From an uncultured Erysipelotrichaceae bacterium (lineage in GTDB: Bacteria; Bacillota_I; Bacilli_A; RF39; UBA660), in NCBI GenBank assembly GCA_902776735.1, contig CACYRE010000001.1:48395-112394 (forward strand): 64,000 nt of DNA, given 5' to 3'. Both the position numbers and the translations under genes were made by a program. Below the pieces are notes generated by a model, which saw nothing but the letters and a program-made list of their open reading frames with translations, was not told the origin of the DNA and made no database searches. Position 1 is the stretch's first letter. Every line of letters starts with the position of its first letter. Below, piece after piece: positions 5,675 through 43,377 of this stretch.

Positions 5675-6430
5675 CTATAAAGTATTTTTAATCGGAATAA
5701 TTAAATCTAAATGGTCTTGTAAATCTTGTGTATCTATTCCTCCATATTGTAAATCATTTTGAAATTCTGTTTCAGCGTCAGATTCCCAATCGAATTCAGG
5801 GTCATTTTCTTCAGCCCATTTTTTAGATTCTTCATAATATCCTAAAGCTTCTATTATTTTCTTTTCATCATCTATTAAAGTAAATAAACCAACTTCAATA
5901 CTACCATCATGGTCTGCAGCATCTAATACAAGATTTCCATTTTCAACTGAGATTTCAACTATATCCCATCTACTAATATATTCTTCAAATTCTGATATAT
6001 TTGAAAAAGTAACACCACCATTGCCAGATGGTTTAAAATCAGAATAATTAGAATTATATCCACCCATTAAATATAATCTACCAAAATTCATTTGATTTTC
6101 AATCATTGGTTCTATATTTTCTTTAAAATCATCCCAAATAAGTTCTGAATCGTCATAAAAATCAGAATTTAGCCATTCATCATAACTAGGGATTTCATCC
6201 TCATCATATCCATCAAAATTAGCTTTAATATAATCATTATAAGCTTCTTCACTAGTATCTACTTCAGAAGACCAAATTGTCTGTCTATTTTCATTTTTTA
6301 TATGAAATTCATTTAGTCTTTCTTTTCTAACTCCTGTGCTTTCCATAAAAACTCTTTTTTTAATTTTAAAAGTTTTAGCTTCACTTTCATTAAGTTCTTT
6401 TGCTAAATTAAAACTTAATTTGTTTAACAT
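5675..6430 (-). CDS. hypothetical protein with shared 30-aa N-terminal leader (family 2)
   Basis: N-terminus MLNKLSFNLAKELNESEAKTFKIKKRVFME; paralogous leader to 4052..5659, unrelated C-terminal body. Confidence 0.65.
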   Translation of the reverse strand: MLNKLSFNLAKELNESEAKTFKIKKRVFMESTGVRKERLNEFHIKNENRQTIWSSEVDTSEEAYNDYIKANFDGYDEDEIPSYDEWLNSDFYDDSELIWDDFKENIEPMIENQMNFGRLYLMGGYNSNYSDFKPSGNGGVTFSNISEFEEYISRWDIVEISVENGNLVLDAADHDGSIEVGLFTLIDDEKKIIEALGYYEESKKWAEENDPEFDWESDAETEFQNDLQYGGIDTQDLQDHLDLIIPIKNTL

Positions 6431-7873: not shown

Positions 7874-10048
7874 CTACCTCTTTATATTATTTCTTTTACA
7901 ATAAACAATTATTGTACTTTTATCTCTATTTAATTTTTTAGCTATTTTTCCATAAGATATGTTTTTAATATTATTTTTTATAAATTCTTTTTCTTCTTCT
8001 GTTAAATAATTAATATTCTTTTTATATTCTATATAATTTAATCTACAATAGTTTCTTATTGTAGCTTCTGCTCTATTTAATTTTTCTATCATTTCTTTAA
8101 GTGTCATATTTTTAGCATTTTTCTTTATAAAATCTCTTTCTTCTTCTGATAAAAGTGAATAACCCCTTTTTCTTGTATGTTTATATTCTATATTATTTTT
8201 ATTATAATATTCTCTAATTGTAGCTTCAGCTCTATTTAATTTATCCATCATTTCTTTAATAGTCATATTTTTAGCATTTTCTTCTATAAAATCTTTTTCT
8301 TCTTCTGATAAATAATGAGAGATTTTTATATATTCTATATTATTTCTATCACAATAAGCATTTATTACAGACATACTTCTATTTAGTTTTTTTGCTAATT
8401 CTTTAGATGTCATAGTTATAGCATTTTTCTTTATAAAGTCTTTTTCTTCTTCTGTAAAAGGATTATAATCTTTTTTATGTTCTATATTATTTCTATAATA
8501 ATAACCACTTATTGTTGGTGTACATCTATTTAGCTTTTTTGCTATTTCTTTAATAGTCATATTTTTAGCATTTTCTTCTATAAATTTTTTTTCCTTTTCA
8601 GATAAAAAATAAAATTCTTTTTTATATTCTATATTATTTCTATCACAATAATCTCTAATTGTAGCTTCTGGTCTATTTAATTTTATTGTTAATTCTTTAA
8701 TAATCATATTTTTAGCATTTTCTTCTATAAATTTTTTTTCTTCCTCTGATAAAAGATAAATTTCTTTTTTATATTTTATATTATTTCTTTTATAATATTG
8801 TCTTATAGTATAAGGTTTTTTATTTAGTTTTTTTGCTATTTCTTTAGTTGTCATAGTCATAGCATTTTCTTCTATAAATTTTTTTTCTTCTTCTGATAAA
8901 TAAATAATTGTATGAGTGTTTTCTTTAATTAAATTTATTAAATTTTCTTGTTTTGTATAGATTTTTAATTTTTCTTTCTTCTTTCCTATTTTAATATCAG
9001 AAACTTTTATATTTCTTTTTTTAGCAAAATTTTCCCAAATAGATATATAACCACTATCTAAATTATATGCATTATTAACTAAATCAAATACTATAGCATC
9101 TTCTCTATGTTCTGAAATTATTCTACCTAATTGTTGTTGATATATAATATTACTTCTAGTTTTTCTTAAGAATACTGCTACATCTATATTAGATAAATGT
9201 ATACCTTCAATAAACATATTTACTGAATATAATATATTTATTCCTTTTTTAGAATTATAAAAATCATTTAATATTTGATTATTAAGTTTATTAGATTTTT
9301 TAGAATGTATATCAAAATTATTAACATCTCTATCTATCCATAATTTTATAAAATTTTTTGCTTGTTCTATATCATTAATTCTAGATACAAATACTATAAT
9401 ATGAAGAGGTTTACTATAATCTATAAATTCTTCAAATATATTTTTTACTTTAGTATTTATATCATAATTAGATAATTTCTTTTGCAAAGCTTTATTTTTA
9501 TAATATCTATAATCTATTTCATAAATAGAAGAAACATATTTTATTTGAGGTAATATTCCTCGTTCTATAGATTCAGCTAAATATAAAGGTTCTATTTCTT
9601 CATTATTAAATATTAATTCTATAGGATTCTTACCATCCATTCTTTCAGGAGTAGCACTAAATCCTATCATTTTACCTTTATAATCTTCTAAGTCTTTCTT
9701 TAATATATTACCCCATTTTTCTGTAACTGACCTATGCATTTCGTCTAAAAATATATAGTCATAATCTAATAAAGACTTATGATTAAAATTTTGTTTTAGT
9801 AAATTACTATATATTATAAAATCTGTATTATTATAATTTCCAAATTCTTTAATATATTCAACAATATTATCTCTAGGTTCTATAATAAGTTTCTTTCCTA
9901 GAAGCTCATCACATAATTCCATTATAATATGAGATTTACCAAAACCTACTGGTCTTACTACACCAAATTTATCACAAGTCTTTAATTTTTCTAATATTAA
10001 ATTTTTAGTCTTTATTCTTTCTATAGATAGTAAACTTTTATCAAACAT
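7874..10048 (-). CDS. SF2 helicase-like ATPase fused to eight tandem helix-turn-helix repeats
   Basis: Walker A VGFGKSH, DExH-like FLDEMHR, SATP motif, QQLGRIIS; C-terminal 8 x ~46-aa repeats LSEEEKxFIEENAKNMTIKEIAKKLNRxxxTIRxYxxRNNIEYKK (HTH-like); promoter TTTACA-N17-TATAAT upstream. Confidence 0.7.
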   Translation of the reverse strand: MFDKSLLSIERIKTKNLILEKLKTCDKFGVVRPVGFGKSHIIMELCDELLGKKLIIEPRDNIVEYIKEFGNYNNTDFIIYSNLLKQNFNHKSLLDYDYIFLDEMHRSVTEKWGNILKKDLEDYKGKMIGFSATPERMDGKNPIELIFNNEEIEPLYLAESIERGILPQIKYVSSIYEIDYRYYKNKALQKKLSNYDINTKVKNIFEEFIDYSKPLHIIVFVSRINDIEQAKNFIKLWIDRDVNNFDIHSKKSNKLNNQILNDFYNSKKGINILYSVNMFIEGIHLSNIDVAVFLRKTRSNIIYQQQLGRIISEHREDAIVFDLVNNAYNLDSGYISIWENFAKKRNIKVSDIKIGKKKEKLKIYTKQENLINLIKENTHTIIYLSEEEKKFIEENAMTMTTKEIAKKLNKKPYTIRQYYKRNNIKYKKEIYLLSEEEKKFIEENAKNMIIKELTIKLNRPEATIRDYCDRNNIEYKKEFYFLSEKEKKFIEENAKNMTIKEIAKKLNRCTPTISGYYYRNNIEHKKDYNPFTEEEKDFIKKNAITMTSKELAKKLNRSMSVINAYCDRNNIEYIKISHYLSEEEKDFIEENAKNMTIKEMMDKLNRAEATIREYYNKNNIEYKHTRKRGYSLLSEEERDFIKKNAKNMTLKEMIEKLNRAEATIRNYCRLNYIEYKKNINYLTEEEKEFIKNNIKNISYGKIAKKLNRDKSTIIVYCKRNNIKR
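7900..9000 (-). repeat. eight imperfect tandem ~138-bp repeats encoding the HTH repeat array
   Basis: Protein-level 46-aa repeats within CDS 7874..10048. Confidence 0.6.
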
Positions 10049-11611: not shown

Positions 11612-12331
11612 CTAGCTATTTGATTGATTTTCAAGCTTCTTTTTAATTTCTTCCATTGATAAACCATTTATAAGACCATCTCTAATTTCTTCCATTTGAT
11701 TACTATCAAATTCTGGTTTAGCATAAGTTAATACTTGTTCCATAGATAAATCATAAAAACCGTATCTAATTTGTCTCATTTGATATTTATCAAATTCTGG
11801 TTTAGCATAAACCTGTATTTCTTCCATAGACAAGTTACGGTCAAAACCATTTCTAATTTCTTCCATTTGTTCACTGCTAAATTCTGGCTTAGCATAAACT
11901 TGTACTTCTTCTATAGATAAACCATCATAAAAACCATCACTAATTTTATCCATTTGATTTTCATTAAATTCTGGTTTAGCATAAACTAATACTTGTTCCA
12001 TAGATAAACCATTTCTAAAATCTACTCTGATTATATGCATCTGGTTTTTATTAAATTCTGGTTTAGCAAATAATAATACTTGTTCCATAGATAAACCATT
12101 ATAAAATCCATTTCCAATTTCATACATTTGACCATTATCAAATTCAGGTTTAGCATAAACTTGTACTTCTTCCATAGATAAGCCATGTCTAAAGCCATTT
12201 TTAATTTCATTCATTTGCCATTTATCAAATTGTCCACTTTCTTCGCACTGTTTAATAAAGTTATCTTCTGTAGTCCCTTCATTTAAATTATTTTGAATAC
12301 TTTCTAATAATTTCATTGTATCATTTTTCAT
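11612..12331 (-). CDS. leader-bearing repeat protein (family 1 leader MKNDTMKLLESIQNNLNE; 7 x ~33-aa repeats)
   Basis: N-terminal 18 aa identical to 12336..12719 (57-bp identical DNA); body is 7 tandem repeats GFxxGLSMEEVQVYAKPEFxxxQMxxI. Confidence 0.65.
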   Translation of the reverse strand: MKNDTMKLLESIQNNLNEGTTEDNFIKQCEESGQFDKWQMNEIKNGFRHGLSMEEVQVYAKPEFDNGQMYEIGNGFYNGLSMEQVLLFAKPEFNKNQMHIIRVDFRNGLSMEQVLVYAKPEFNENQMDKISDGFYDGLSIEEVQVYAKPEFSSEQMEEIRNGFDRNLSMEEIQVYAKPEFDKYQMRQIRYGFYDLSMEQVLTYAKPEFDSNQMEEIRDGLINGLSMEEIKKKLENQSNS

Positions 12332-12335
12332 ATTT

Positions 12336-12719
12336 TTACCTTCTTAATATTTTTAATTGTTCATTAGCACATTGGTCTAACAAATCAATAACTTCTTCAA
12401 TAGATACACCTGTTTTTTCTTTTCTGTTGATTGCTTTATTGTCTTTTATAATATCTACATAAATATCATAATCATCACTGTGTTTATTATATCCAATAAA
12501 ACCTAGTCTTATAGAAGTACCACCAGATATATAACCTTTACTATCATATATATCAGCAGCAAATCCAATATTTCCTGTACCAGTATCATATTGATAAACA
12601 AATTTATATACTTTATTTATTGTAGAAGTTAACATAGATATAAATTGTTCTTTATTTATATCACTCTCATTTAAATTATTTTGAATACTTTCTAATAATT
12701 TCATTGTATCATTTTTCAT
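12336..12719 (-). CDS. leader-bearing protein (family 1 leader MKNDTMKLLESIQNNLNES)
   Basis: Identical leader to 11612..12331, unrelated body. Confidence 0.6.
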   Translation of the reverse strand: MKNDTMKLLESIQNNLNESDINKEQFISMLTSTINKVYKFVYQYDTGTGNIGFAADIYDSKGYISGGTSIRLGFIGYNKHSDDYDIYVDIIKDNKAINRKEKTGVSIEEVIDLLDQCANEQLKILRR

Positions 12720-12776
12720 AATAATATTCTCCTTTTTTAATATTTTCTAATATTATATATAAAATTAATACTAATT

Positions 12777-13583
12777 TTAATCTAATTCTTCAGACCTTAT
12801 AGTAAACTCACCATCAAATTCTTCATTATATTCGTCTGGATTTATTCTTTTATATTTACCTGTCATAGTATTCTCTATTTCAACCATAAAACCATTCATT
12901 AATTTGTCATGAGCAAATAAAGTAGCTTCAGTCCAGTCATTAGTTTTTAATTCATCTTCTGTATCATGTAATTTATAATCATAATAAGAGCATACGATAT
13001 ATTTTGTATCATTACTAATTTCATTTAAACTACTTTGAATACTTTCTAATAAATTTCTAGTTTTACTTCTAAATTCAATAGATTCATTTACATTAGATAA
13101 TCCTAATTTCTTTTCAACAATTTCTTTATGATTATCATGTATTTTACCTTCATTATATAAATTTTCTAGAGTTTGTTTTAATATATCAACATCTTTAGAA
13201 AATACTTGAATTATTTTTTTTGGACTTCCTTTTGTTTTTCTATATGGAAGACGAACACTTCCATAAGCCATATATTGATTATCTGGAATAGTTGTAATAG
13301 AATTTTGATTAACTTCCATTATTAAAGTATCAGGTAGTTCTAAATCATCTGTTAATTTTGGATTATCTCCATAAACATTCTCACTTTGATAAATTGCAAA
13401 ACCAACATGTAGAATATCATTTCCAGCAATTCCATTTATAAATTCACTTTGATTCTCTCCTAGATATAATCTAATAAAACAAGTATCTCCTCCTAAAGCT
13501 CCTAAAGATATGCTTATTCCACTATTAGGAAATCTTTGTTTATATGCATTTTCTATTTGAGATTTAAACTCACCATAAGTCAT
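12777..13583 (-). CDS. two-domain protein with internal family-1 leader-like segment (RNLLESIQSSLNEIS at ~aa 170)
   Basis: Internal copy of LLESIQxxLNE motif between two domains; RBS AGGAGGAAATAAAAAATG. Confidence 0.6.
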   Translation of the reverse strand: MTYGEFKSQIENAYKQRFPNSGISISLGALGGDTCFIRLYLGENQSEFINGIAGNDILHVGFAIYQSENVYGDNPKLTDDLELPDTLIMEVNQNSITTIPDNQYMAYGSVRLPYRKTKGSPKKIIQVFSKDVDILKQTLENLYNEGKIHDNHKEIVEKKLGLSNVNESIEFRSKTRNLLESIQSSLNEISNDTKYIVCSYYDYKLHDTEDELKTNDWTEATLFAHDKLMNGFMVEIENTMTGKYKRINPDEYNEEFDGEFTIRSEELD

Positions 13584-13597
13584 TTTTTATTTCCTCC

Positions 13598-15634
13598 TTA
13601 TAATACTTGAATAGCTCCAGTAGATGCAAAATAAAATCCACTAAAATCTAAGTCTCTACCTAAAGCTCCATAATCAAAATAATCAGATAAATCATTTCCA
13701 TCTGCAATATCTATTTCTAATTGTTCTTCTACTACAGAGTCTAACCATTCTTCTACTAGGTCATAAAATTCATCACTACCTTCATCTATATCTGGGTTAT
13801 CATCTCTTACAGATTCTTCAGCTGCTTCTCTCCAGCTTTCTCTATAAGCTTTTTCATCAATATAATTTTCTTTATTAGCTACTCCTTCAAAACCTCCAAT
13901 CATATCTACCCAGGCTTCACCTAATTCTTCTTCAGTTTCTACTCCTGGAAAGAATATATAATCCCCAGATTCTAATATATCCATACAAGTATCAAAATCA
14001 TCATTTTGGTCTTCCATTATAGCAGTAAAAGCAGCTCTTTCATCTTCTGATAATTCTTCAATCTTTTCAAGCTGTTCAATAACTACCCAAGGATTTGAGT
14101 ATTCATCTATAGTAAAAGGAATATCTCCTTCAGTATCATTTATAAATGGTTCTTCATCTTTATGTGCTTCTAAAAATTCTTTAGCTTGTTCTAATTTCAT
14201 CCAACCACCATTTATTTGTTCTACATCTGCTCCATTTTCATTATAATTTCCCCAAGTATTCATAAATAATTCAATATTTAATGGATTATATTCTTCTGTT
14301 AATAAACCTTTTTCTATACTATCTTTTCTTACATTTTCTAAACTAGATTCTTCTAATTGACTTAATTTATCCATTAGAAAATCTCTTTTAGACTCTAAAC
14401 CAGAAATATTTTTATTTGGGTCAGAATTTGCTATACTATCTTGTACTTTTTCTAATTCTTTCTTTATAGTTTCAGCATAATCTTTTCTTGTTTTATTTGA
14501 TACTGATTCAGACAACATATCATAAACTTCTTGTGTTTCATATCTTATTATATGTTTTCCATCTTTATCAGTTCCATTATACATAGGACCTAAATAACCT
14601 TTAAATTGTAATTGATTATCTAATTCTTCTCTTGGAACTACACCACCATTATTTCTATATTTTGAATTATCAGGAGATAATTTATCTTCTTTTATTGGTA
14701 ATTTTTCTGCTTCTTCTCTTGTATAAGTTCCAGCATAATCACCACCAACTAATTGATAGACATAATTATTATAATCAGCCTCTTCATTTAAAGCTGATTC
14801 ATCATATTCCTCAAAATCAAAGTTTTGATTTACTTCTTCTAAAAATTCATCTAAATAATTATCATTTACAGAATCTAAATCTGTATTTCTTAATGCAAAC
14901 ATTATTACTTGAACCATTGATTGCCAGGTTTTTGACCTATTAAAATCTTCTATATTATTAGGCATTGATGAAATAAAACCAGAACTAGAAGAATAATTTG
15001 ATTTTAAAAAGTTTTCAAATTCACTATTTGATAAAGCTTCTTTTCTTAAATTTTCATATTCATCTTGATTTACTTCTAAATTAAATTCTAGCTCGTCTCC
15101 TGAATAATTATATTGACTTGGATGATAAACTTTATTTGCTATAATTTTAGCACTTGGAAGAACTTCTTGTATTGTTTTTTCTATATATTTTGGAGCAATA
15201 TCTTCTATTATTTTATCTAATTCTTCTAATGAAGCACTATCTGGTAATCTGTCACTTAAAGAATACATATCAACATTTATTATTGGAAGTACCCCAGTAT
15301 TTAAATCTATATCTAAATTAGCTCCAGATTCATTTAAATTAGATTCATCTAATGATATACTTCCATAACCTTTATATTCTTCATATCCTTGGTCTTTTAA
15401 TTCTCTTGCTTTTTGTCTTAATGCTTTGCTTGTTAATTTTTTATGTTTATTTAAAGGCATTGTTTGACTATTAACAAATTGAAATTGTTTAGTTTCATTA
15501 TTTATAATTAAACCTAAAATACTAAAGTTAAATTGATTTTTAGACACATAGGTTTCGTCACCAGATAACATTTTTTTGTCATCTTCTTTTAAATTTGCTT
15601 GAATATTTTCAAATAACTTTTTTGTTCCTGACAT
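13598..15634 (-). CDS. large leader-bearing protein (MSGTKKLFENIQANLKED)
   Basis: 678 aa; N-terminus fits family-1 leader consensus; RBS AGGAGGATTAAAATG. Confidence 0.65.
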   Translation of the reverse strand: MSGTKKLFENIQANLKEDDKKMLSGDETYVSKNQFNFSILGLIINNETKQFQFVNSQTMPLNKHKKLTSKALRQKARELKDQGYEEYKGYGSISLDESNLNESGANLDIDLNTGVLPIINVDMYSLSDRLPDSASLEELDKIIEDIAPKYIEKTIQEVLPSAKIIANKVYHPSQYNYSGDELEFNLEVNQDEYENLRKEALSNSEFENFLKSNYSSSSGFISSMPNNIEDFNRSKTWQSMVQVIMFALRNTDLDSVNDNYLDEFLEEVNQNFDFEEYDESALNEEADYNNYVYQLVGGDYAGTYTREEAEKLPIKEDKLSPDNSKYRNNGGVVPREELDNQLQFKGYLGPMYNGTDKDGKHIIRYETQEVYDMLSESVSNKTRKDYAETIKKELEKVQDSIANSDPNKNISGLESKRDFLMDKLSQLEESSLENVRKDSIEKGLLTEEYNPLNIELFMNTWGNYNENGADVEQINGGWMKLEQAKEFLEAHKDEEPFINDTEGDIPFTIDEYSNPWVVIEQLEKIEELSEDERAAFTAIMEDQNDDFDTCMDILESGDYIFFPGVETEEELGEAWVDMIGGFEGVANKENYIDEKAYRESWREAAEESVRDDNPDIDEGSDEFYDLVEEWLDSVVEEQLEIDIADGNDLSDYFDYGALGRDLDFSGFYFASTGAIQVL

Positions 15635-15645
15635 TTTAATCCTCC

Positions 15646-16128
15646 TTATTTAAATATAAATTCTTGACTATTATTATGTTTACCAGATAATTTTGATGAA
15701 AAAGCTTTTGTATTTTCTTTTGAAAAAGACATATTTTTTTCATTATTATTAAATTCTCCAGCTAAAGTTCCATCTGCTTTAATAAAACCAAAATAATCCT
15801 TATCCTTCCAAATTATACTTTCTTGATTTAATTTTTGTGCTATTTTTAAAGCTTCTTCTTTTGGAATATTATAAATTATATAACTATCTTCATTACCTGT
15901 TAATCCATCATCATAAGTATACTTACCTTTTATTAAATTATACCCAATATTATCATATTTTGAACTTAACTTTCTTATAAAGTCATCTAATTCTTCTCTT
16001 CTATCTCTCTTTGTATTTTGGTCTTGACTTCCAATTATTGCAAAAGACTTATCATCTTTGGTATGTTGATAAAGTCTAGATAAAGATATTTCATTTAATC
16101 TATTAATTATATTAATAGTATCTTTCAT
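15646..16128 (-). CDS. hypothetical protein (N-term NIINRLNEIS LxE motif)
   Basis: ORF; leader-like LNE|IS near N-terminus. Confidence 0.5.
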   Translation of the reverse strand: MKDTINIINRLNEISLSRLYQHTKDDKSFAIIGSQDQNTKRDRREELDDFIRKLSSKYDNIGYNLIKGKYTYDDGLTGNEDSYIIYNIPKEEALKIAQKLNQESIIWKDKDYFGFIKADGTLAGEFNNNEKNMSFSKENTKAFSSKLSGKHNNSQEFIFK

Positions 16129-16130
16129 TT

Positions 16131-16718
16131 TTAATTTCCTTCCTTCTCAATAAATTTATCATCTAATTCTTGAAGTAATCCTTCGACCCATTCTTGTAAT
16201 TCTGGATATAATTTTATAGTATCTTTATTTGAGTTATAATATTGATTTGCTGTATCTCCAAAGACATATCCCATAGCTTGCCAGTCACAAATCATTTCTA
16301 TATAAGCTTTCTTTACTTCTACTAAATCTGTCATAGGAGTTAATTCTCCACTTTCATCTGTCCAATATTGCCAATGATGAGGATTATTTCTAAAATGATG
16401 ATACCAAGCTGCTTGAAAATTAGCTTCATTTGCTGTTTTTTCTTCATCATTTACTGGATTATAATTAGCTCTATAAGCATCAAACTCCTCTTCTCCCCAT
16501 TTAGATAAGTCATGTTTTTCTATTTGTTTAGTTAACTCATCATAATTTTCTTTAATAAAATCATCATCTAAAGTAGATACTTGTTCTAACCAAGCTTTTT
16601 GCACATTTTGTATATGAGAATCTACATATTGAGAATAATCATTAATGCATTTATCTAAGTCTTCAGATTCAGTTATATTTTTCTGTATACTTTCTAATAA
16701 ATTTTTAGTCATTGACAT
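16131..16718 (-). CDS. leader-bearing protein (MSMTKNLLESIQKNITESE); start refined from ORF-track 16757 to 16718
   Basis: Strong SD GGGGAGGATTAAT 8 nt upstream of ATG at 16718; ORF-track extension MWYNICVLRGGLI overlies a perfect TTTACA-N17-TGnTATAAT promoter, so is not coding. Confidence 0.65.
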   Translation of the reverse strand: MSMTKNLLESIQKNITESEDLDKCINDYSQYVDSHIQNVQKAWLEQVSTLDDDFIKENYDELTKQIEKHDLSKWGEEEFDAYRANYNPVNDEEKTANEANFQAAWYHHFRNNPHHWQYWTDESGELTPMTDLVEVKKAYIEMICDWQAMGYVFGDTANQYYNSNKDTIKLYPELQEWVEGLLQELDDKFIEKEGN

Positions 16719-16745
16719 TATTAATCCTCCCCTTAACACACATAT

Positions 16746-16774
16746 ATTATACCACATTTTTAATGAAATGTAAA
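16746..16774 (-). promoter_or_regulatory. promoter TTTACA-N17-TGnTATAAT
   Basis: Minus strand TATTTACA|TTTCATTAAAAATGTGG|TATAAT with extended -10 TG; drives leader-protein gene 16131..16718. Confidence 0.7.
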
Positions 16775-16781
16775 TATAATT

Positions 16782-17882
16782 TTAATCTATACTTAAATCT
16801 TTGCTTCTTAATTTATAATATTCATCTTTAAGTTTAGATATATAATCTTCACTTCTTAATTCTTTAAATACTAAATTACCTATACTAGCTTCACCTTCTT
16901 CAGCTAAACCTAGTTTTCTCATCATATAAATTTCATTAATTAAATCCATTATTTTATCTGTATCTTTAGATACTAAAGCATTATCACATTTCTCTTCATA
17001 TTCTGATAATTCATTAGATATATCTGGAATATCATAGTTTATAGGAATAGGAACTTTAACCCATTCTTGTTTTAAAATACTATATCTACCATTAGTAGCA
17101 TTACCTGACATTATATCTTCAATATAAAGTTCTACTGGTATTCCTTTAATATTTAAATCATAATTATCATTAAATGAACTCTTTTTAGAATTATATAATT
17201 CTTGTAATACTGTAGGCTCTATATAGCTTAAAGCAAAGTTAACAATAATATGCAAATCTATATCTGATTTATTATTATAATTATAGCTAGCATTACTTCC
17301 AACTATTTCTATATCTACTATATTAAGAGGAATTTCTATATAATTAAGAAACTCATCTGAAATTTCTTTTAAAGATTTTAGTACTTCTTCTTTCATAGTC
17401 ATATTAGTATTCCATAGTTTAGGATTTAAATCTTCATGAACTTCTATAGCTTCTTCTAGTTTATCAAAATGTTGACTCTCTGTTAATATTTCTCCCTCTT
17501 CTATATTACTAGCTCTATGAACATCTATAAGATTTAATAGATATTTAGTTTGAGTATTAAAAGCTTCTATTTTTTCTTCATTAAAATTACTTATAAAATC
17601 TTCAGACTGTTCTTTATATCTTAATAAAGTTTTCTTAAATGTAGATTCACTAACATCTGAACTAGAATCTGGTTCATAAGTATATCCTAAATTATTAAAG
17701 TTAGTAATAATATTATTTAAATTATCAATTATATCACCCAGAATATCATCTGAGACACTTTTATCTTCATTATAATAATATTTATCAACTAACTCTTGAA
17801 TATTATATAAATATGGTATTGTATTATCTTTTAAATCTTGAAGTACTATAGTTTCTTTTAAATATTTAAATAAATCACTCAT
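16782..17882 (-). CDS. nucleotidyltransferase-fold protein (GS-x10-DxD minimal NTase motif)
   Basis: IVGSNASYNYNNKSDIDLHIIVNF matches G[GS]x9-13[DE]h[DE]h of Pol-beta/CD-NTase superfamily; N-term YLKETIV (LxE). Confidence 0.55.
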   Translation of the reverse strand: MSDLFKYLKETIVLQDLKDNTIPYLYNIQELVDKYYYNEDKSVSDDILGDIIDNLNNIITNFNNLGYTYEPDSSSDVSESTFKKTLLRYKEQSEDFISNFNEEKIEAFNTQTKYLLNLIDVHRASNIEEGEILTESQHFDKLEEAIEVHEDLNPKLWNTNMTMKEEVLKSLKEISDEFLNYIEIPLNIVDIEIVGSNASYNYNNKSDIDLHIIVNFALSYIEPTVLQELYNSKKSSFNDNYDLNIKGIPVELYIEDIMSGNATNGRYSILKQEWVKVPIPINYDIPDISNELSEYEEKCDNALVSKDTDKIMDLINEIYMMRKLGLAEEGEASIGNLVFKELRSEDYISKLKDEYYKLRSKDLSID

Positions 17883-17921
17883 TTAATTCCTCCAATAAAT
17901 ATCTCTATATTTATATATAAA

Positions 17922-17962
17922 AATCAAGCTCTAAATCTTCGACAGACTAGAGCTTGATTTCT
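17922..17962 (-). terminator. hairpin (13-bp stem AAATCAAGCTCTA / TAGAGCTTGATTT) downstream of mazG
   Basis: Perfect 13-bp inverted repeat with 14-nt loop. Confidence 0.5.
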
Positions 17963-17963
17963 T

Positions 17964-18275
17964 TCATGAATGGACAGGTTTTCCAATATCATTAAATTTA
18001 TAAGTTCTTGACTTATTCTTTTGTATCTTTTTCTCGATTTCTTTCTGTAAATCGACTCCTTTAATCTCAGCTATTCCTAATAAGAATATAGCAACATCAG
18101 CGAGTTCTTCCGGAAAAGTATCTTTCTGTTTGTAATAAGCGTCATAAGCTTCAGAAACTTCACCATACAAATAGCAGAATTCCTGTTCTATATTTGTAGT
18201 ATTAAATCCATGCCTCCGTTTGTTTTCCAAAATCTCTCTTTGAATCTCTTGTAGTGTCATAATTATAACCTCCAC
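17964..18275 (-). CDS. mazG: MazG-like nucleotide pyrophosphohydrolase
   Basis: EVSEAYDAY...EELADVAIFLL EExxE/D metal-binding pattern; locally higher GC than surroundings. Confidence 0.7.
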   Translation of the reverse strand: MEVIIMTLQEIQREILENKRRHGFNTTNIEQEFCYLYGEVSEAYDAYYKQKDTFPEELADVAIFLLGIAEIKGVDLQKEIEKKIQKNKSRTYKFNDIGKPVHS

Positions 18276-18311
18276 TTAATATTGTATTTATTGTTACTAA
18301 ATATTAATATG

Positions 18312-18605
18312 CTAATTTTCTACTAGTTCTAAATTTATCGTTGTTCTATTATGATATTCGTTAGTTACTCTCATTTCTGTTACTAAAAAATTTTTAGTAT
18401 CTTTTTTAACTTTATGATTTTTTGTATAACAGAAATTAATTTGTATAGGTTCACTTACTGGATACATATTCGGCCAAATATTAATTTCACTGTGTTTATT
18501 TTTATAATATCCTTTTATTTTCTTTTTAGGTTTATCTGATTTGTAATTATATTTAATATTTGATACTTTTGCTAACATATAATAATCCTTTCTCTGTAAT
18601 TTCAT
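18312..18605 (-). CDS. hypothetical protein
   Basis: ORF; partially overlaps phosphoesterase gene 3' end in track, true extent uncertain. Confidence 0.35.
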   Translation of the reverse strand: MKLQRKDYYMLAKVSNIKYNYKSDKPKKKIKGYYKNKHSEINIWPNMYPVSEPIQINFCYTKNHKVKKDTKNFLVTEMRVTNEYHNRTTINLELVEN

Positions 18606-19098
18606 CTAAAGATACTGGATAATAATTCCAATTATCAACACCTACATTAAACCTATTATCTCTATGCAATTCAGTTTTATAACTATGTAAATGTCCATGT
18701 AAATGAATAGAACCATATTCCATACCATTCCAATTTTCTATAGGATAATGACATAAAACTATATCTTTTCCTCGGTCTTTTATTTCTTTATAATAATCTA
18801 TACTTTCAAACAGTCTAGGATTAAAACTTTTTCTATCTACCCAAGAGTCATGATTTCCTCTAATTAAATGAATTTTACCATTTAATTGTTTTATAAAGCT
18901 CATTAATATATCTATTGGAAGAGAATTACCTACAAATGCAAAGTCTCCTAAAATATAGACATCATCATTCTGTTCTATTTTACTGTTCCAATTTTTTATT
19001 AATTTTATACTCATCTCATGTACATCTATAAAAGGTCTATTTTCATATTTAATTATATTTTTATGACCTAAATGTAAATCCGCAGTGTAGTAAATCAT
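18553..19098 (-). CDS. calcineurin-like metallophosphoesterase; start refined to internal ATG at 19098
   Basis: Motifs DLHLGH, GDFAF, GNHD, HGHLH; SD GGAGAAAATAAA-ATG at 19098; ORF-track start 19137 lacks RBS and would overlap upstream gene. Confidence 0.75.
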   Translation of the reverse strand: MIYYTADLHLGHKNIIKYENRPFIDVHEMSIKLIKNWNSKIEQNDDVYILGDFAFVGNSLPIDILMSFIKQLNGKIHLIRGNHDSWVDRKSFNPRLFESIDYYKEIKDRGKDIVLCHYPIENWNGMEYGSIHLHGHLHSYKTELHRDNRFNVGVDNWNYYPVSLDEITEKGLLYVSKSIKY

Positions 19099-19099
19099 T

Positions 19100-19441
19100 T
19101 TATTTTCTCCTTTTAGGTTTTTCTTTATACATTTCATCTAATTTTTTCTTTTCAGTTTTAGAAATATTATTCTTACCATAATATTGTTTATATCTAGTTT
19201 TTAAAATTCTTAAAGCCTGTCTACATTGAACTTCATCAAAGTATTTAACATGAGTTGCATAATAATCTATATTCATTTGATTTGATAACCATTTATATAA
19301 AGCTGTTCTTGACGATTTTCTATTACTACTAAATAACCATAATGAATCCAAATAATAATGTACTTCTCGTCGCAATCTTGCTAATTCTTTGTCTTTTTTG
19401 TACTTAGATAATAAATTATATGTCTTATAAATAAAAATCAA
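19100..19441 (-). CDS. hypothetical basic protein
   Basis: ORF in array. Confidence 0.45.
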   Translation of the reverse strand: MIFIYKTYNLLSKYKKDKELARLRREVHYYLDSLWLFSSNRKSSRTALYKWLSNQMNIDYYATHVKYFDEVQCRQALRILKTRYKQYYGKNNISKTEKKKLDEMYKEKPKRRK

Positions 19442-19467
19442 TTTATGGACGTTCTGGTGACTTTTAA

Positions 19468-20844
19468 CTATAAAATTAAATTATCTAAAGTACTTTTTCT
19501 TATCTTACAGCTATCTGCAGCTCTATCTGGCCTCCAACCTTTAAAAATAGCATGAGCAAACCTTTGATTTTTAGATGATATATCTTGTCCATCTATTTCA
19601 GCAACACATCCATATACTCTTGGTAATAAAGCAACATTTCCATTTTCATCTTTTATAGAAATCATTTTTCTTAGTTCATCTGTCATTCCAGAAATAGTTG
19701 CTATATGATGTATTATTGGATTTCCAGTATCATCCAGTAGATAATTATTCTCATCATCTGTTAAATAAATTGAAAATTCTAAAGCTCCCACTAAACCTTC
19801 ATTAGCAGTACCTGGATTTCCTTCTTTAAATCCTGTTACAAAAGCGTCTACAGTATCTCCTAATTTTTCTGCTAATAAAGATTGAGACACAGTTCTTTTA
19901 AGTTTTATCCATTCTCCTCTACGTTTACTCCAAGGTTCATAACCAGAATCTAAATCTTTAGTAACTACTCCTTCTCCACCTTCATTAATTATCTGGTCAT
20001 AAAATGCATGTTTATTTATACAAGTGCTAGATATTAATTGTATTCTATCTTTAAACCCAGCAAATGATAACAATTTATATATTTCTAATACTTTTTTATA
20101 TCTTTCTCTAAATACTGGTCCTACTATCTCTTTTCCATTATCATCTAATTTATTAATTAACCAATTATTATTTAGTTTTAATATATCAAATATCATAAAT
20201 TTAAGTGGATTAGTTTCTTGCATTTTATGAGATAAATCGTCTAAACTTCCTAAAATACTAGTAGTTAAGTTTTGTTGAGTTTCTGCTACTAATTCTGTTC
20301 CATCTTTCATAGGATTCACGACGTTATAATATGGGACTATTTCTGTATCTATAATAAAATTATTAATACTAGCATTTGTTAATATTTCAGGAATAATCTG
20401 AGGTACTAGTATTTTAGTTCCATAAGATATAGGTAAACTATCTGTAATAGATTTATTCCTACTAAAGAAATCAAACCCTTTATTTCTATCCCAACAAACT
20501 AAACATCTACATCCATCTATTTTCTCTTGAAATATCCAACCATGTTCAGTATTAAAATCACAATCTTCCCATAGTTTATCTCTAATATTATCTAATTTTT
20601 TATCTTTGGACTGTAAAGCCAACATAGGTCCTGATATATGTAAAATATCCTTAACAAATGGATTTAGTGTACCTTCTCTTTCATATTTAGCTAAATAATA
20701 ATTTTGTACTGCTTCTTCTAAATCTTCTATAGTAGGTTCAAAATAATATTCTCCAGTATCTTTATTTTTTCTTCGTCTAGATTTTTTAATATTAGTTATA
20801 TTTAAATCTTCGCATTGTTTTATTAGTTCATCTTTTCTTGCCAT
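19468..20844 (-). CDS. lig: ATP-dependent DNA ligase
   Basis: Motif I KIDGCR, motif IV EGVVTK, motif V WIKLKR. Confidence 0.8.
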   Translation of the reverse strand: MARKDELIKQCEDLNITNIKKSRRRKNKDTGEYYFEPTIEDLEEAVQNYYLAKYEREGTLNPFVKDILHISGPMLALQSKDKKLDNIRDKLWEDCDFNTEHGWIFQEKIDGCRCLVCWDRNKGFDFFSRNKSITDSLPISYGTKILVPQIIPEILTNASINNFIIDTEIVPYYNVVNPMKDGTELVAETQQNLTTSILGSLDDLSHKMQETNPLKFMIFDILKLNNNWLINKLDDNGKEIVGPVFRERYKKVLEIYKLLSFAGFKDRIQLISSTCINKHAFYDQIINEGGEGVVTKDLDSGYEPWSKRRGEWIKLKRTVSQSLLAEKLGDTVDAFVTGFKEGNPGTANEGLVGALEFSIYLTDDENNYLLDDTGNPIIHHIATISGMTDELRKMISIKDENGNVALLPRVYGCVAEIDGQDISSKNQRFAHAIFKGWRPDRAADSCKIRKSTLDNLIL

Positions 20845-20858
20845 TATATCCTCCTAAT

Positions 20859-21338
20859 CTATATTATTTCTGCATTGTCTAGAAATTTGTCTAATACTAA
20901 TTTAATAAAATCTTTTCCTAAATTATTAGAGTTAGATGATTTAGTTATATCTACTTTTAATTCACCATTTTTATATCGTCTAAAATATATAGTTCCGTTG
21001 TCTATATTATCTTCCCAATATAATACAAACCATCTATCACCATCACCTACAGAACCACAAGCTGTTAAATCTACTTTGGAAATATTTCTAGTATAAGTAA
21101 TTTCATTATTTTTAATATCACTTTCTACTGGTTTTTGGTTCTCTCTAGTAATACCTTTAATTGCCCAAAATTGAGCTTCTTCTAATTTAGTCATAGCCAA
21201 ACTAGTTTCTCTTCCTGGTTTGCAAAGTTCTTCTACTGAATCATAAATATCAGACATACTATCTCTAAAACAATCTATTCTTGATTGCTGGTCTTCGGTT
21301 GTTTGAGTATATCTTGCTTTTTCATGTAAATCTCTCAT
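20859..21338 (-). CDS. hypothetical protein
   Basis: ORF, RBS AAGGAGGTAATAT upstream. Confidence 0.5.
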   Translation of the reverse strand: MRDLHEKARYTQTTEDQQSRIDCFRDSMSDIYDSVEELCKPGRETSLAMTKLEEAQFWAIKGITRENQKPVESDIKNNEITYTRNISKVDLTACGSVGDGDRWFVLYWEDNIDNGTIYFRRYKNGELKVDITKSSNSNNLGKDFIKLVLDKFLDNAEII

Positions 21339-21379
21339 ATTTATATTACCTCCTTATATAAATAATTATGCTATAAATG

Positions 21380-21413
21380 AAAATAGTATATAACTTAAGT
21401 TATATACTATTTT
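21380..21413. repeat. 34-bp perfect palindrome AAAATAGTATATAACTT|AAGTTATATACTATTTT
   Basis: Read directly; intergenic between 21477..22112 and 20859..21338. Confidence 0.8.
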
Positions 21414-21476
21414 CGAGAAATGATTGAATTTTTTATATAATATAAAGTTGCTATACTATATCTAATTTATATTATG

Positions 21477-22112
21477 CTATGTATTATACCATTTTATTTT
21501 GTCTTCTTCTAACATTTGTTTTAATTTTTCTCTATTTTCTACTTTAAATGCTTCTATCATATCGATTCCTAATTTATCTAAATAATCTTTAAAATAAATA
21601 GTATTTCTTTCTTGATGTATATTATTAAATGTTGATTTACCGTCTATATGTTGAACTAAACATGGTCTATAAATCAAATGTGGGATTCCTTTATTATGTA
21701 AAACTAATGATAATAATGTGCCATATTTTTGTTGTTTTGGATATTTGTCTTCTGGTAAATACATAGTCATCATCTCATCAGCTAGCATTTTAGTTATTCC
21801 CTTAGGAAAGTATGTACATTGGTTATATGCAAATATATTAGAATAATGTGTTGTATAATATAATTCTGGTCTATTAAAAAAATTAATAATAGAATCTGGA
21901 TATTGATTTACAACTTTTTTAACTTCTTCTTCAAAATTATTGCATAATATAATATCATCTTCCATAAGAACTGCGTTATAATCATTAATTTTATATAAAG
22001 CATCAATATAAGATTTAACATATTTATGTTCATAATCTATAATTGGTTCATATTCTATTGGAATATTAATTTTTCTATTTTCCATTGTACGTACAAAATA
22101 TTTTATATCCAT
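21477..22112 (-). CDS. hypothetical protein
   Basis: ORF; followed by 34-bp perfect palindrome. Confidence 0.5.
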   Translation of the reverse strand: MDIKYFVRTMENRKINIPIEYEPIIDYEHKYVKSYIDALYKINDYNAVLMEDDIILCNNFEEEVKKVVNQYPDSIINFFNRPELYYTTHYSNIFAYNQCTYFPKGITKMLADEMMTMYLPEDKYPKQQKYGTLLSLVLHNKGIPHLIYRPCLVQHIDGKSTFNNIHQERNTIYFKDYLDKLGIDMIEAFKVENREKLKQMLEEDKIKWYNT

Positions 22113-22114
22113 TT

Positions 22115-22732
22115 TTATACTACCTCTATTATTGGTTCTCCTGATAAACTAATTGTTTTAGTATCTCCACTTGCTCCTAATAATTTTATGCTAGATGTAT
22201 CTACTATATCTACTTGTAAATTACAATCTACTATTGGATTTCCTGATGAATAAGTTCTAATTAAATTAATAAAATCAATTACTCTAAAAGGATATGGAAC
22301 CATTCCACAACTAGTATTAAATGAAGCTATAGTAGATACAGTTTCATTACGTTCAAAACTACCATTTTTTCCTATAATACCACAAATAAATATACCATTA
22401 TTAATTGAAAAATATAGTTTACCCATAATATAAGTATTACTAATATAAGAAACAGCACACTCAGAAATAGTTATAAATCCTGTGATTTCACTTCCATCAG
22501 TATTTAATACCATTTCTTTTTCCTCATCAGTTGTATTATTATCTATTAAATTAACTAAGTATTCTAGTCTATATTTAACTCTAGAATTAGCTTTTAAATG
22601 TCTATTCTTGACTGAATCATCTAAAGTTCCAACTATATCAAATATTTGAACATCTTTCTTTATATTGTTTGAAATAATTTTTTCATTTTTTTCATTTAAA
22701 ATTTCTTGAGCTTTTTCTTTTAAAGTACTCAT
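22115..22732 (-). CDS. receptor-binding/tail-fibre-like protein, paralogue A1 (shared N-term MSTLKEKAQEILNEKNEKIIS)
   Basis: N-terminal ~35 aa near-identical to 24044..24826 and similar to 56285..57037; divergent C-terminus. Confidence 0.55.
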   Translation of the reverse strand: MSTLKEKAQEILNEKNEKIISNNIKKDVQIFDIVGTLDDSVKNRHLKANSRVKYRLEYLVNLIDNNTTDEEKEMVLNTDGSEITGFITISECAVSYISNTYIMGKLYFSINNGIFICGIIGKNGSFERNETVSTIASFNTSCGMVPYPFRVIDFINLIRTYSSGNPIVDCNLQVDIVDTSSIKLLGASGDTKTISLSGEPIIEVV

Positions 22733-24043: not shown

Positions 24044-24826
24044 TTATTGTACTGGTTCACGTACTTCCCAACCTAATTCCATACAATCTTGCCAAATAGG
24101 TAATTCTGTACATGTATTACATTGACTATCTGAAAAACCAAGTAAACGGTCTAATGTTTTCCAATGAGCTCGTGGTGGTTGAACTTTATTTAATGGAAAC
24201 TCAATATCAGAAATCATAGCTAATATGTTATTTAAACTTTCATTAGATAAATTTGGACAATTTTGAAACATATTATTCATAAAATTATCATGCAAATATT
24301 CTTCTAATGTTTTATCAAAGCTTTCAGCAATCCTTGTTATATCTTCTAAACTAGTATTTATACAATATACTGGTACATCAACTAAATCTCCACAACCACC
24401 AAACATTCCATAAACAGATGTTGCATTAATTATATTTATTTGTGGAGCATTTATAATTCGTGAACCTGAAAACATACTATCAAATCTAGTACCAGAACTT
24501 GTATCTATATTTAAGTCAATTCTAGAGCTATCTGTATCAGAATAAAGCTCACCAAACATATTAACGAAATCTGTAACTTGACTAAAATCTAATTTATTAA
24601 AAACATCACTTATTAATAAATTATAATATTCAACAGGAATACTACCTTCATCATATAAAGTGTCTCTAAACATCTCTACTGCTCTAAGTCTAGTAAAACT
24701 AGGTAAAGTAGGTTTATAATTTCCTACTACATTAAATATCTGTGTTCCTGGTCTTATGTTATCTGAAATAATTTTTTCATTTTTTTCAGTTAAAATCTCT
24801 TCAGCTTTTTCTTTTAAAGTAGACAT
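24044..24826 (-). CDS. receptor-binding/tail-fibre-like protein, paralogue A2; C-term with NxSNESLNNILAM motif
   Basis: Shares N-term with 22115 and C-terminal NLSNESLNNILAMISDI with 51002 and 56285 proteins. Confidence 0.55.
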   Translation of the reverse strand: MSTLKEKAEEILTEKNEKIISDNIRPGTQIFNVVGNYKPTLPSFTRLRAVEMFRDTLYDEGSIPVEYYNLLISDVFNKLDFSQVTDFVNMFGELYSDTDSSRIDLNIDTSSGTRFDSMFSGSRIINAPQINIINATSVYGMFGGCGDLVDVPVYCINTSLEDITRIAESFDKTLEEYLHDNFMNNMFQNCPNLSNESLNNILAMISDIEFPLNKVQPPRAHWKTLDRLLGFSDSQCNTCTELPIWQDCMELGWEVREPVQ

Positions 24827-42944: not shown

Positions 42945-42947
42945 AAT

Positions 42948-43027
42948 TGGAGAAGGTAGGATTCGAACCTATAATATTTAAATGACTTATACAAATCATT
43001 ATTCTCTACCAATTGAGATACTTCTCC
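42948..43027 (-). tRNA. tRNA-like gene with canonical acceptor/D/T arms but non-canonical anticodon arm (isotype unassigned)
   Basis: Minus-strand RNA GGAGAAG-TA-TCTC-AATTGGTA-GAGA-A-[TAATGATTTGTATAAGTCATTTAAATATTA]-TAGG-TTCGAAT-CCTA-CCTTCTCC-A: 7-bp acceptor, D-arm, GGTTCGAATCC T-arm; no 5-bp/7-nt anticodon arm can be drawn (best: 7-bp stem AATGATT/AGTCATT with 6-nt loop, or 6 bp with 8-nt loop). No encoded CCA. Confidence 0.55.
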
Positions 43028-43377
43028 ATAAATTTGGTGAGAGGTTCTAGTTTACGTCCAAATTTATAAGGTAATCAACCTCTTTCAGAGTATAAATACT
43101 CCCTCTCTATTAAATGACGTACATTGCACTATACAATAATATAAATCTATTAGGTTATTATATAATATGATGAGTATTATTTTTAATTAACATCATTATA
43201 TTATTAATACAGCTACTGTAACTCTATAATGTAGACCTCTTCATTCTACACCGTCGCTTTACACTATATAAAGCTAAATACCTATAGGCGTCTATTATTT
43301 CAAATAGACATCCACATCTATCATTGTAGATGTTTCAAGTATCATAAAATGTAATCCTCTGGACGATTACTTTTCCA

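Follow-up and report, generated by a model that had tools for sequence, protein, structure and literature searches.

The gene for the nucleotidyltransferase (NTase) studied here lies in a 64,000-nucleotide stretch of phage DNA (contig CACYRE010000001.1, positions 48,395 to 112,394; hereafter the window), beside genes for a MazG-type NTP pyrophosphohydrolase and a calcineurin-like metallophosphoesterase, and the locus raises the question of which neighbours the enzyme works with and to what end. A sequence-only reading of the window had joined the three into a unit that makes and degrades nucleotide signals. The three open reading frames (ORFs) are present on the minus strand with their motifs intact (Table 1), and we find that the NTase has other partners. 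At a probability of about one half, we favour a reading in which the NTase is the first gene of a tightly packed, "disassembled" polyvalent block (13598-17882), acts as an early or injected anti-defence effector that nucleotidylylates a host target, and forms no unit with the MazG or phosphoesterase genes. It has been argued that polyvalent proteins undergo packaging and injection (Iyer, Burroughs, Anand, de Souza and Aravind 2017; PMC5512222).

The nucleotidyltransferase and its fusion partners

The signature motif VGSNASYNYNNKSDIDLHIIV occupies residues 194-214 of the NTase (window 17241-17303), and the active site consists of G195-S196, D207-x-D209 and E251. Residues G195, S196, D207, D209, H211 and E251 are invariant across the homologues that we compared, and H211, N238, R322, K340 and R343 are invariant residues specific to the family. 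The only strong profile match is to PHROG 36119, a group with no known function (residues 143-364, E 2.7e-39). Pfam NTP_transf_2 matches weakly (E 0.004) and, like MTPAP-like, below its cut-off; NCBIfam returned no match for the NTase, and PDB sequence and profile searches with the NTase and with the DUF5662 and 160-aa proteins encoded downstream gave nothing meaningful. In an AlphaFold2 (AF2) model of the full protein, residues 1-125 form a four-helix domain and 128-140 a disordered linker, after which the NTase domain follows. Residues 141-366, with a predicted local distance difference test score (pLDDT) of 89, form a helix, three core strands with two short strands and then four helices, which is the layout of the ~250-aa ANT/KNTase class: a core followed by a C-terminal helical domain. 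The invariant residues and the modelled core confirm the minimal NTase signature and Pol-beta-type fold that had been read from the sequence.

The same reading had described an N-terminal extension of ~170 aa with an LxE motif. The motif is real, but the conserved domain begins at about residue 141 and the extension is correspondingly ~140 aa long. With a conservation of at least 90%, the motif, L142-E-E144, lies where the domain begins throughout the family; the consensus there, K-L-x-E-A-I-E-V-H, forms the extreme N-terminus of most members. The extension matched only full-length homologues of the clade and one fragment (P0145) in phmmer searches. Identity with LPD11, or with a domain common to other window genes, was considered for it and ruled out; it is a clade-specific helical domain. 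At the other end of the protein, the last ~60 residues (helical bundle, ...GNLVFKELR..., 16785-16964) recur C-terminal to the 160-aa SAM-lyase-like (S-adenosylmethionine lyase-like) domain in P0305-P0307 (BLASTP E 2e-12), and the bundle thus acts as a separable module.

Comparison with known folds placed the enzyme in the superfamily and no closer. The top PDB matches in Foldseek were AAD(9), AadA and ANT(3'')(9) (E 7e-5 to 1e-3, probability up to 0.99), but at template modelling (TM) scores of 0.24-0.30 and root-mean-square deviations (rmsd) above 12 Å, so that the core alone is common to them. CdnE and CdnD (E 1e-4 to 2e-3, TM at most 0.31), CCA-adding enzymes and terminal uridylyltransferases (TUTases) were also among the matches, and whole-protein and trimmed-domain searches gave the same picture. 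The core matched MNT structures with a probability of 1.0 and a TM to target of 0.43-0.46. The MNT antitoxin of the HEPN-MNT module (~100-130 aa) was itself considered as an identity and ruled out by the extra helical domain of the NTase and the lack of a HEPN partner, no HEPN family being among the Pfam matches of the ten genes at 13598-21338. Profiles of cGAS/DncV-like nucleotidyltransferases (CD-NTases), namely the PADLOC CBASS cyclase models and Pfam, did not match, PADLOC giving only weak hits to the PDC-S09 small NTase (E 6e-4 or worse). Neither did those of RlaP, KNTase or AadA, and no other Pfam family reached E 0.1. Membership of the CD-NTases, which had been raised as a possibility, is not borne out by these searches. 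The competing suggestion of a simple aminoglycoside NTase finds those enzymes at the head of the fold matches, but with TM scores of at most 0.30 we do not regard the NTase as one of them. In the BFVD database its closest relatives (TM 0.82-0.94) are uncharacterised multi-domain phage proteins. Because there is no CD-NTase match, no Pfam match beyond the weak NTP_transf_2 and MTPAP-like hits and no PDB sequence match, and because the BFVD relatives are uncharacterised, we treat the NTase as belonging to a distinct clade: on sequence and model evidence, the family is a phage-restricted, uncharacterised clade of the Pol-beta superfamily, whose two-metal active site is intact and whose small helical bundle putatively binds substrate. 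We found no characterised member of it, and in the literature on phage NTases in anti-defence the one described family that our search brought up was that of Ho et al. (bioRxiv 10.1101/2022.06.09.495361).

The family is large. An exhaustive HMMER search, clustered at 50% identity, gave 3,575 representatives. The fusion search with all window ORFs covered 275 family proteins, domain position was taken from 145 representatives, a Pfam census from 54 long members, and the residue conservation given above from 53 homologues. The NTase domain is mostly the N-terminal part of phage proteins with several domains and lengths of up to 1,858 aa: it starts within the first 30 residues in 113 of the 145 representatives, is followed by at least 100 aa on its C-terminal side in 95, and stands alone in 23. 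Pfam domains in the long members were LRR_5 (10 of the 54), DUF5662 (8), ART-PolyVal (8), SAM lyase (3), RelE (2) and GNAT (1), so that the domain recurs in multi-domain proteins together with ART-PolyVal and other hallmarks of polyvalent effectors. Its fusion partners include the products of its downstream neighbours in the window. DUF5662 is fused to it in 8 of the 275 family proteins, in both orders, and the 160-aa domain in 10 (E 1e-44 to 1e-48); residues 12-97 of the ArdA fusion recur N-terminal to the NTase domain in one protein, P0020. Fusions to MazG or to the phosphoesterase numbered 0 of 275.

Gene order around the nucleotidyltransferase

The spacing of the genes divides the proposed trio. 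Directly after the MazG stop codon lies a hairpin, followed by UUUUUAU and then by the GGAGG ribosome-binding site of the NTase; its RNA fold has an energy of -25.2 kcal/mol (z = -4.97), and none of 200 shuffles was as stable. This is the predicted architecture of an intrinsic terminator between MazG and NTase. Upstream, a DUF3268 stop codon is 1 nt from the probable phosphoesterase start, and downstream the NTase, DUF5662, 160-aa and ArdA genes are separated by 2-24 nt. With a terminator-like hairpin in the middle and tight spacing on either side, the trio therefore straddles two units. The 13-bp repeat that had been said to bound MazG is perfect, but lies on its 3' side only. MazG is also locally richer in GC, as had been noted (~0.30 against ~0.23 in its surroundings), but unexceptionally so, because DUF5662 (0.32) and the ligase gene (0.33) peak likewise. 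A scan for sigma-70-like promoters found 61 against 62.6 expected, the chance level in AT-rich DNA, and for that reason we claim no promoter.

Table 1. Features of the window around the nucleotidyltransferase gene.
Feature	Position	Strand	Length, evidence or remark
NTase gene	16782-17882	minus	366 aa
NTase catalytic domain, residues 141-366	16785-17462	minus	Pol-beta core and four-helix C-terminal bundle; PHROG 36119
NTase N-terminal extension, residues 1-140	17463-17882	minus	AF2 model and phmmer; N-terminus MSDLFKYLKETIVLQDLKD
DUF5662 protein	16131-16757	minus	Pfam DUF5662, E 2.5e-29; N-terminal leader MSMTKNLLESIQKNITE
160-aa domain protein, distantly SAM-lyase-like	15646-16128	minus	Fusions to NTase domain; hhalign
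678-aa protein with C-terminal ArdA (anti-restriction DNA mimic) domain	13598-15634	minus	Pfam ArdA, E 6.5e-7; leader MSGTKKLFENIQANLKE
Terminator-like hairpin	17921-17960	minus	Perfect 13-bp inverted repeat, 17921-17933 and 17948-17960
MazG-like all-alpha NTP pyrophosphohydrolase	17964-18275	minus	98-103 aa; probable ATG at 18260
Calcineurin-like metallophosphoesterase	18553-19137	minus	Probable ATG at 19098; PHROG 547, E 1.2e-53
Two leader genes	11612-12331 and 12336-12719	minus	Leader MKNDTMKLLESIQNNLNE

Both upstream enzymes are what they had been taken for. The MazG product scores 23.1 bits against Pfam MazG (PF03819; cut-off 22), also matches MazG-like (E 8e-6) and PHROG 3301, and keeps the metal-binding motif E39-x-x-E42...E57-x-x-D60; the closest solved structures are SSO3215 (1VMG), 4QGP and MazZ (7ODY). 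The phosphoesterase exceeds the cut-offs of Metallophos_2 (28.0 against 27) and Metallophos (26.4 against 21.5) and has all five metal-ligand motifs (D20-x-H22, G64-D65, G94-N-H-D97, H130 and G148-H-x-H151), with aq_1665 (1XM7) as the closest solved structure. Its homologues are found in 1,648 phage records, whether or not the NTase is present, and by its matches it is placed in a ubiquitous phage family to which we assign no substrate. Between the two genes is a candidate gene (18312-18605, minus strand), a 97-aa ORF that overlaps the 3' end of the phosphoesterase by 53 nt and has no family match in Pfam or PHROG.

Related loci show the same division. The closest relative (L007, 71% identity) has ligase, NTase and ArdA genes and lacks MazG, phosphoesterase and DUF5662; L008 has a 51-aa MazG remnant followed by NTase, DUF5662 and ArdA, with no phosphoesterase; and in L009 the order is ligase, phosphoesterase, MazG (78% identity), NTase, DUF5662, ArdA. 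Besides the closest relative, 22 other loci lack MazG and the phosphoesterase, and in T4-like and cyanophage loci the 8-10 kb around the NTase contain neither gene. ArdA homologues follow the NTase in L004-L009. In T4-like phages (~60-210 kb) the NTase is 62-70% identical to the window domain (55% in L028), and each of the 16 T4-like loci whose flanks are long enough has it 0.2-8 kb upstream of the genes for the S77 prohead protease and the Gp23 capsid protein; LPD11-like (often), 160-aa-domain and ArdA genes adjoin it there. The hairpin between them, the absences in relatives, the lack of fusions and the occurrence of the phosphoesterase regardless of the NTase leave the idea of a synthase and degrader unit unsupported. 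We read MazG and the phosphoesterase as ordinary, independently mobile and dispensable accessory genes of the upstream, ligase-side unit, in which the likeliest task of MazG is to clean or reshape the nucleotide pool.

In the downstream block, the DUF5662 protein has a near-invariant H33 and invariant H67-D68, H106, H112-H113 and D143 (numbered from an M16 start), a pattern from which we infer an HD-phosphohydrolase-like protein. A literature search on DUF5662 returned no papers. That it might be a constant companion of the NTase was considered and rejected. Elsewhere, on a 197-kb phage contig (L030, 1552-6528), two DUF5662 paralogues flank genes for a DNA methylase and Pfam Tad6, and a phosphoesterase of the PHROG-547 type lies at a distance of 3 kb; this is another anti-defence island, and it has no NTase. 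The family of the 160-aa protein aligned in hhalign with the Pfam SAM-lyase domains of polyvalent proteins that carry NTase and DUF5662 (probability 96.9%, E 1.8e-10), and the protein also matches DUF3293 and S-AdoMet_lyase weakly.

The block is also linked to its surroundings by shared N-termini. A similar leader heads five of seven consecutive genes within 11612-17882, with the consensus M-x(3-6)-K-L-[LF]-E-[SN]-I-Q-x-N-L-x-E, to which the N-terminus of the NTase (Table 1) is a weaker match; variants occur at 2008-3606, 4052-5659 and 5675-6430 (minus strand). The motif L-x-E-[SNT]-I at residues 7-8 was found in 5 of 92 ORFs, all of them within 11612-17882, where shuffles predict 0.27. In the related loci L007-L009 the leader heads ArdA, LPD11 and other genes. 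These leaders, and the L-x-E at the start of the NTase domain, may be targeting or maturation-protease sites. Separately, near-identical N-termini are seen in two neighbouring gene pairs on the minus strand, 4052-5659 and 5675-6430 (MLNKLSFNLAKELNESE) and 22115-22732 and 24044-24826 (MSTLKEKA.EIL.EKNEKIIS.NI), which suggests local duplication of N-terminal modules.

About 3 kb upstream of the NTase, a 159-aa protein (20859-21338, minus strand) matches the Pfam Acb2/Tad1 hairpin domain over its N-terminal 65 residues (E 3e-12) and, weakly, the solved Acb2 homologue 9PTQ; a 103-aa gene in L007 matches solely its C-terminal half (E 1.4e-5). This is probably a sponge for cyclic nucleotides with an uncharacterised C-terminal domain fused to it. 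Of the anti-defence setting that had been proposed for the trio, the neighbourhood rich in counter-defence genes (ArdA fusion, SAM-lyase-like protein and Acb2/Tad1-hairpin gene) stands, but the trio itself does not.

The window as a whole is ~25% GC, with all ORFs of at least 110 aa on the minus strand. Tail and lysis genes lie above ~47 kb, replication genes encode a DnaB-like helicase, PolA, a SNF2 helicase and an ATP-dependent ligase, and a block of unknown genes lies below ~18 kb. As megablast of 14000-22000 against phage records gave no match, the relatives of its PolA are all below 32% identity, and related contigs were binned with metagenome-assembled genomes of Clostridia and Bacilli, we regard the phage as uncultured, with a host that is probably a gut Firmicutes bacterium. 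Elsewhere on the minus strand are a 724-aa protein of unusual architecture (7874-10048), with a helicase C-terminal domain and then at least four tandem helix-turn-helix modules (HTH_17, HTH_38, HTH_11 and others), and, between the PolA and SNF2 helicase genes, a 140-aa protein (29479-29901) with an N-terminal MazE/AbrB-type antitoxin domain (E 8e-9). The single tRNA gene of the window (42947-43028, minus strand; Rfam 44.7 bits), to which ARAGORN gives a four-base anticodon (gtat) and no amino acid, may belong to the frameshift or suppressor type or may be a mis-fold.

Effector, signalling enzyme or repair enzyme

In the reading that we favour, the block would run from the NTase through the HD-like DUF5662 protein and the SAM-lyase-like 160-aa protein to the ArdA fusion, and the NTase would be produced very early or else be carried in the virion and enter the cell together with the DNA. 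Using an NTP, it would nucleotidylylate a hydroxyl of a host molecule, which is most likely a macromolecule of defence or housekeeping; the analogies are MNT, protein nucleotidylylation of the GlnE/DrrA type and the ADP-ribosyltransferases found in the same polyvalent proteins. Its anti-restriction partners would meanwhile use up SAM and imitate DNA. A bolder version, which we think unlikely, makes the domain a new and very widespread class of effector enzymes that the capsid packages and injects, whose conserved K-L-x-E-[AS]-I leader or cleavage motif serves for targeting, release or both, and whose target at the start of infection is a host protein of immunity or core function (or a nucleic acid) that they nucleotidylylate, with HD-like DUF5662 reversing or complementing the modification. 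If true, this would be a nucleotidyl counterpart of ADP-ribosylation by T4 Alt.

Several observations weigh against the effector reading. The gene set, motifs, fusions and synteny are observed, and delivery, acceptor and anti-defence role are extrapolated from them. The idea of packaging draws on head-gene position in other phages and on short motifs, and no homologue of the S77 prohead protease, the Gp23 capsid protein or LPD11 was found within the 64-kb window. The leader motifs were chosen with the data already in view, and in this proteome 41% of ORFs have [LI]xE among their first 20 residues. The cyanophage NTase is a solo gene in replication-region contexts, and DUF5662 usually stands alone, often with no NTase nearby. 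An HD-family, Pfam or PDB match for DUF5662 was looked for and none was found, so that its HD assignment is a motif-based inference. The fold search carried no usable specificity signal, likeness to aminoglycoside NTases and to CD-NTases being inseparable at TM scores of at most 0.31. Finally, in two clade members the gene immediately upstream of the NTase is MazG (78% identical in L009), and some coupling between the two genes is therefore possible.

That adjacency is one of the points in favour of a signalling cassette, in which the NTase would make messengers, such as cyclic dinucleotides that serve as decoys or competitors, and the other two enzymes would degrade alarmones or cyclic nucleotides. 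There is a precedent in the phage NTases (Bcp1, Av-05) reported to make 3'3'-cGAMP and c-di-AMP and to block TIR-STING, and in the MazG-like Atd1, which is reported to adjoin a phage NTase, to hydrolyse (p)ppGpp and to have an anti-TIR-STING link (Ho et al., bioRxiv 10.1101/2022.06.09.495361); CdnE and CdnD among the top fold matches and the Acb2/Tad1-hairpin gene 3 kb away would also fit. The Bcp1 enzyme (Bcp1_127, L013:43152-43913), however, is a member of Pfam RlaP (PF10127, E 1.6e-17) and is unrelated to the window NTase beyond the GS...DxD core (BLASTP E 0.5, hhalign probability 0.2%). The window sequence GS-N-A-S-Y-N-Y-NNK-SDID has the spacing of the RlaP-type GS-x-AY[GAN]T-x4-SDxD with AY[GAN]T replaced, and the NP-x-hh-[DE] that lies ~60 residues downstream in RlaP-type enzymes was not seen on reading the window sequence after SDID. 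A search with the window MazG against phage records recovered one record, of human faecal origin; the Atd1-encoding Pectobacterium phage was not among the results. Because the Bcp1 NTase is unrelated and the MazG search recovers a single record, we use the precedent as an analogy and not as a family assignment. The domain is, moreover, 226 aa long against 271-320 residues in the matched CdnC, CdnD and CdnE chains; it matches no CD-NTase profile, and its TM to the CD-NTase structures is at most 0.31. With a terminator between MazG and NTase, and with MazG and the phosphoesterase missing from most relatives and never fused to the NTase, we judge the cassette quite improbable.

We give less credence still to two further roles. 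As part of an end-repair module, the NTase would restore 3' nucleotides, in the manner of RlaP (a concept described in PMC7824862) or of CCA-adding enzymes, to tRNA or DNA cut by host nucleases, the phosphoesterase healing the 3'-phosphate or 2',3'-cyclic phosphate and the ligase sealing. The ligase does lie 0-2.3 kb upstream of the NTase in four of four clade loci, directly adjacent in L007, and matches Pfam RNA_ligase weakly (E 1.3e-5); CCA-adding enzymes and TUTases are among the fold matches, and some family members match MTPAP-like and poly(A) polymerase palm models. Yet the ligase sits in a replication module with PolA and helicases and looks like a replicative DNA ligase, a terminator parts the genes on its side from the NTase, and T4-like and cyanophage loci have no ligase in the 6-10 kb flanking the NTase on either side. 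The NTase has no Pfam RlaP match, and its fusion partners are anti-restriction and ADP-ribosyltransferase domains, not RNA-repair domains. A small-molecule enzyme of the ANT/Lnu type would adenylylate and so inactivate an antiviral small molecule, for instance a chemical defence resembling aminoglycosides or an immune signal derived from nucleotides. Here AAD(9), AadA and ANT(3'')(9) are the best PDB matches, with the same two-domain layout and a similar length (~226 aa against 248-267 residues in AAD(9) and AadA chains), and one GenBank annotation names a cyanophage homologue "aminoglycoside nucleotidyltransferase". But only the core is shared (TM 0.24-0.30, rmsd >12 Å), E 0.1 is reached by no Pfam family beyond those named above, a set that would include any C-terminal model of KNTase or AadA, and an N-terminal place in huge multi-effector proteins fits macromolecular targets better, which makes this role as improbable, in our view, as end repair.

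The findings bear on annotation and on phage biology. The family is large and highly conserved, with 65-70% identity between phage types that are unrelated, keeps its catalytic motifs intact and is tied to known counter-defence domains; finding its acceptor would lead to a new enzymatic chemistry of counter-defence or host takeover, and would provide a handle on how gut phages deliver a multi-enzyme arsenal. For annotation, a GS-DxD NTase next to MazG is not to be taken for a signalling cassette before synteny has been checked, and gene fusions can point to partners other than MazG or the phosphoesterase, as they do here.

Comparison with known systems

The system of Ho et al. resembles the window in having a phage Pol-beta NTase beside a MazG-like gene, an anti-defence-rich region and GS-x-A...SDxD spacing; unlike it, the window NTase has no RlaP match and the window MazG is not recognisably Atd1-like. 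With the CD-NTases (CdnC, CdnD, CdnE, DncV and cGAS) the NTase has in common the catalytic GS, DxD and acidic triad, but it is much smaller, matches no profile and has no Cap effector partner. Enzymes of the ANT/KNTase type (AAD(9) 6XZ0, AadA 5LPA, KNTase 1KNY and LinB 3JYY) likewise combine a Pol-beta core with a small helical domain at a similar size, and the NTase differs from these aminoglycoside and lincosamide NTases in its low TM scores (at most 0.30), the lack of a sequence-profile match, its polyvalent phage context and its own invariant residues.

The internal proteins of T4 (IPI-III and Alt) carry capsid-targeting sequences that are processed by the gp21 protease at L/I-x-E. The window genes resemble them in their short N-terminal L-x-E leaders and in a cargo that is anti-restriction and host-modifying, and the NTase genes of the T4-like relatives lie near a gene for an S77 (gp21-type) protease. 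The difference is that no S77 protease was found in the 64 kb of the window phage, where cleavage and packaging are putative.

A further comparison is with the polyvalent proteins of phages (PMC5512222). The NTase domain of the window family occurs in multi-domain phage proteins with ART-PolyVal, LRR, GNAT, RelE and SAM-lyase domains, the T4-like NTase lies in a head-gene neighbourhood with LPD11-like and ArdA genes adjoining, and the window block has the same domain order laid out as separate genes. The minimal pol-beta NTase of that survey was recorded solely in the polyvalent proteins that conjugative elements encode and in none of the phage type, whereas the window family is larger (a core with a helical bundle), phage-borne and, in the window, encoded by a separate gene with a clade-specific N-terminal domain. 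Because the survey has the minimal NTase in conjugative elements only, we regard the family described here as a new variant of polyvalent effector.

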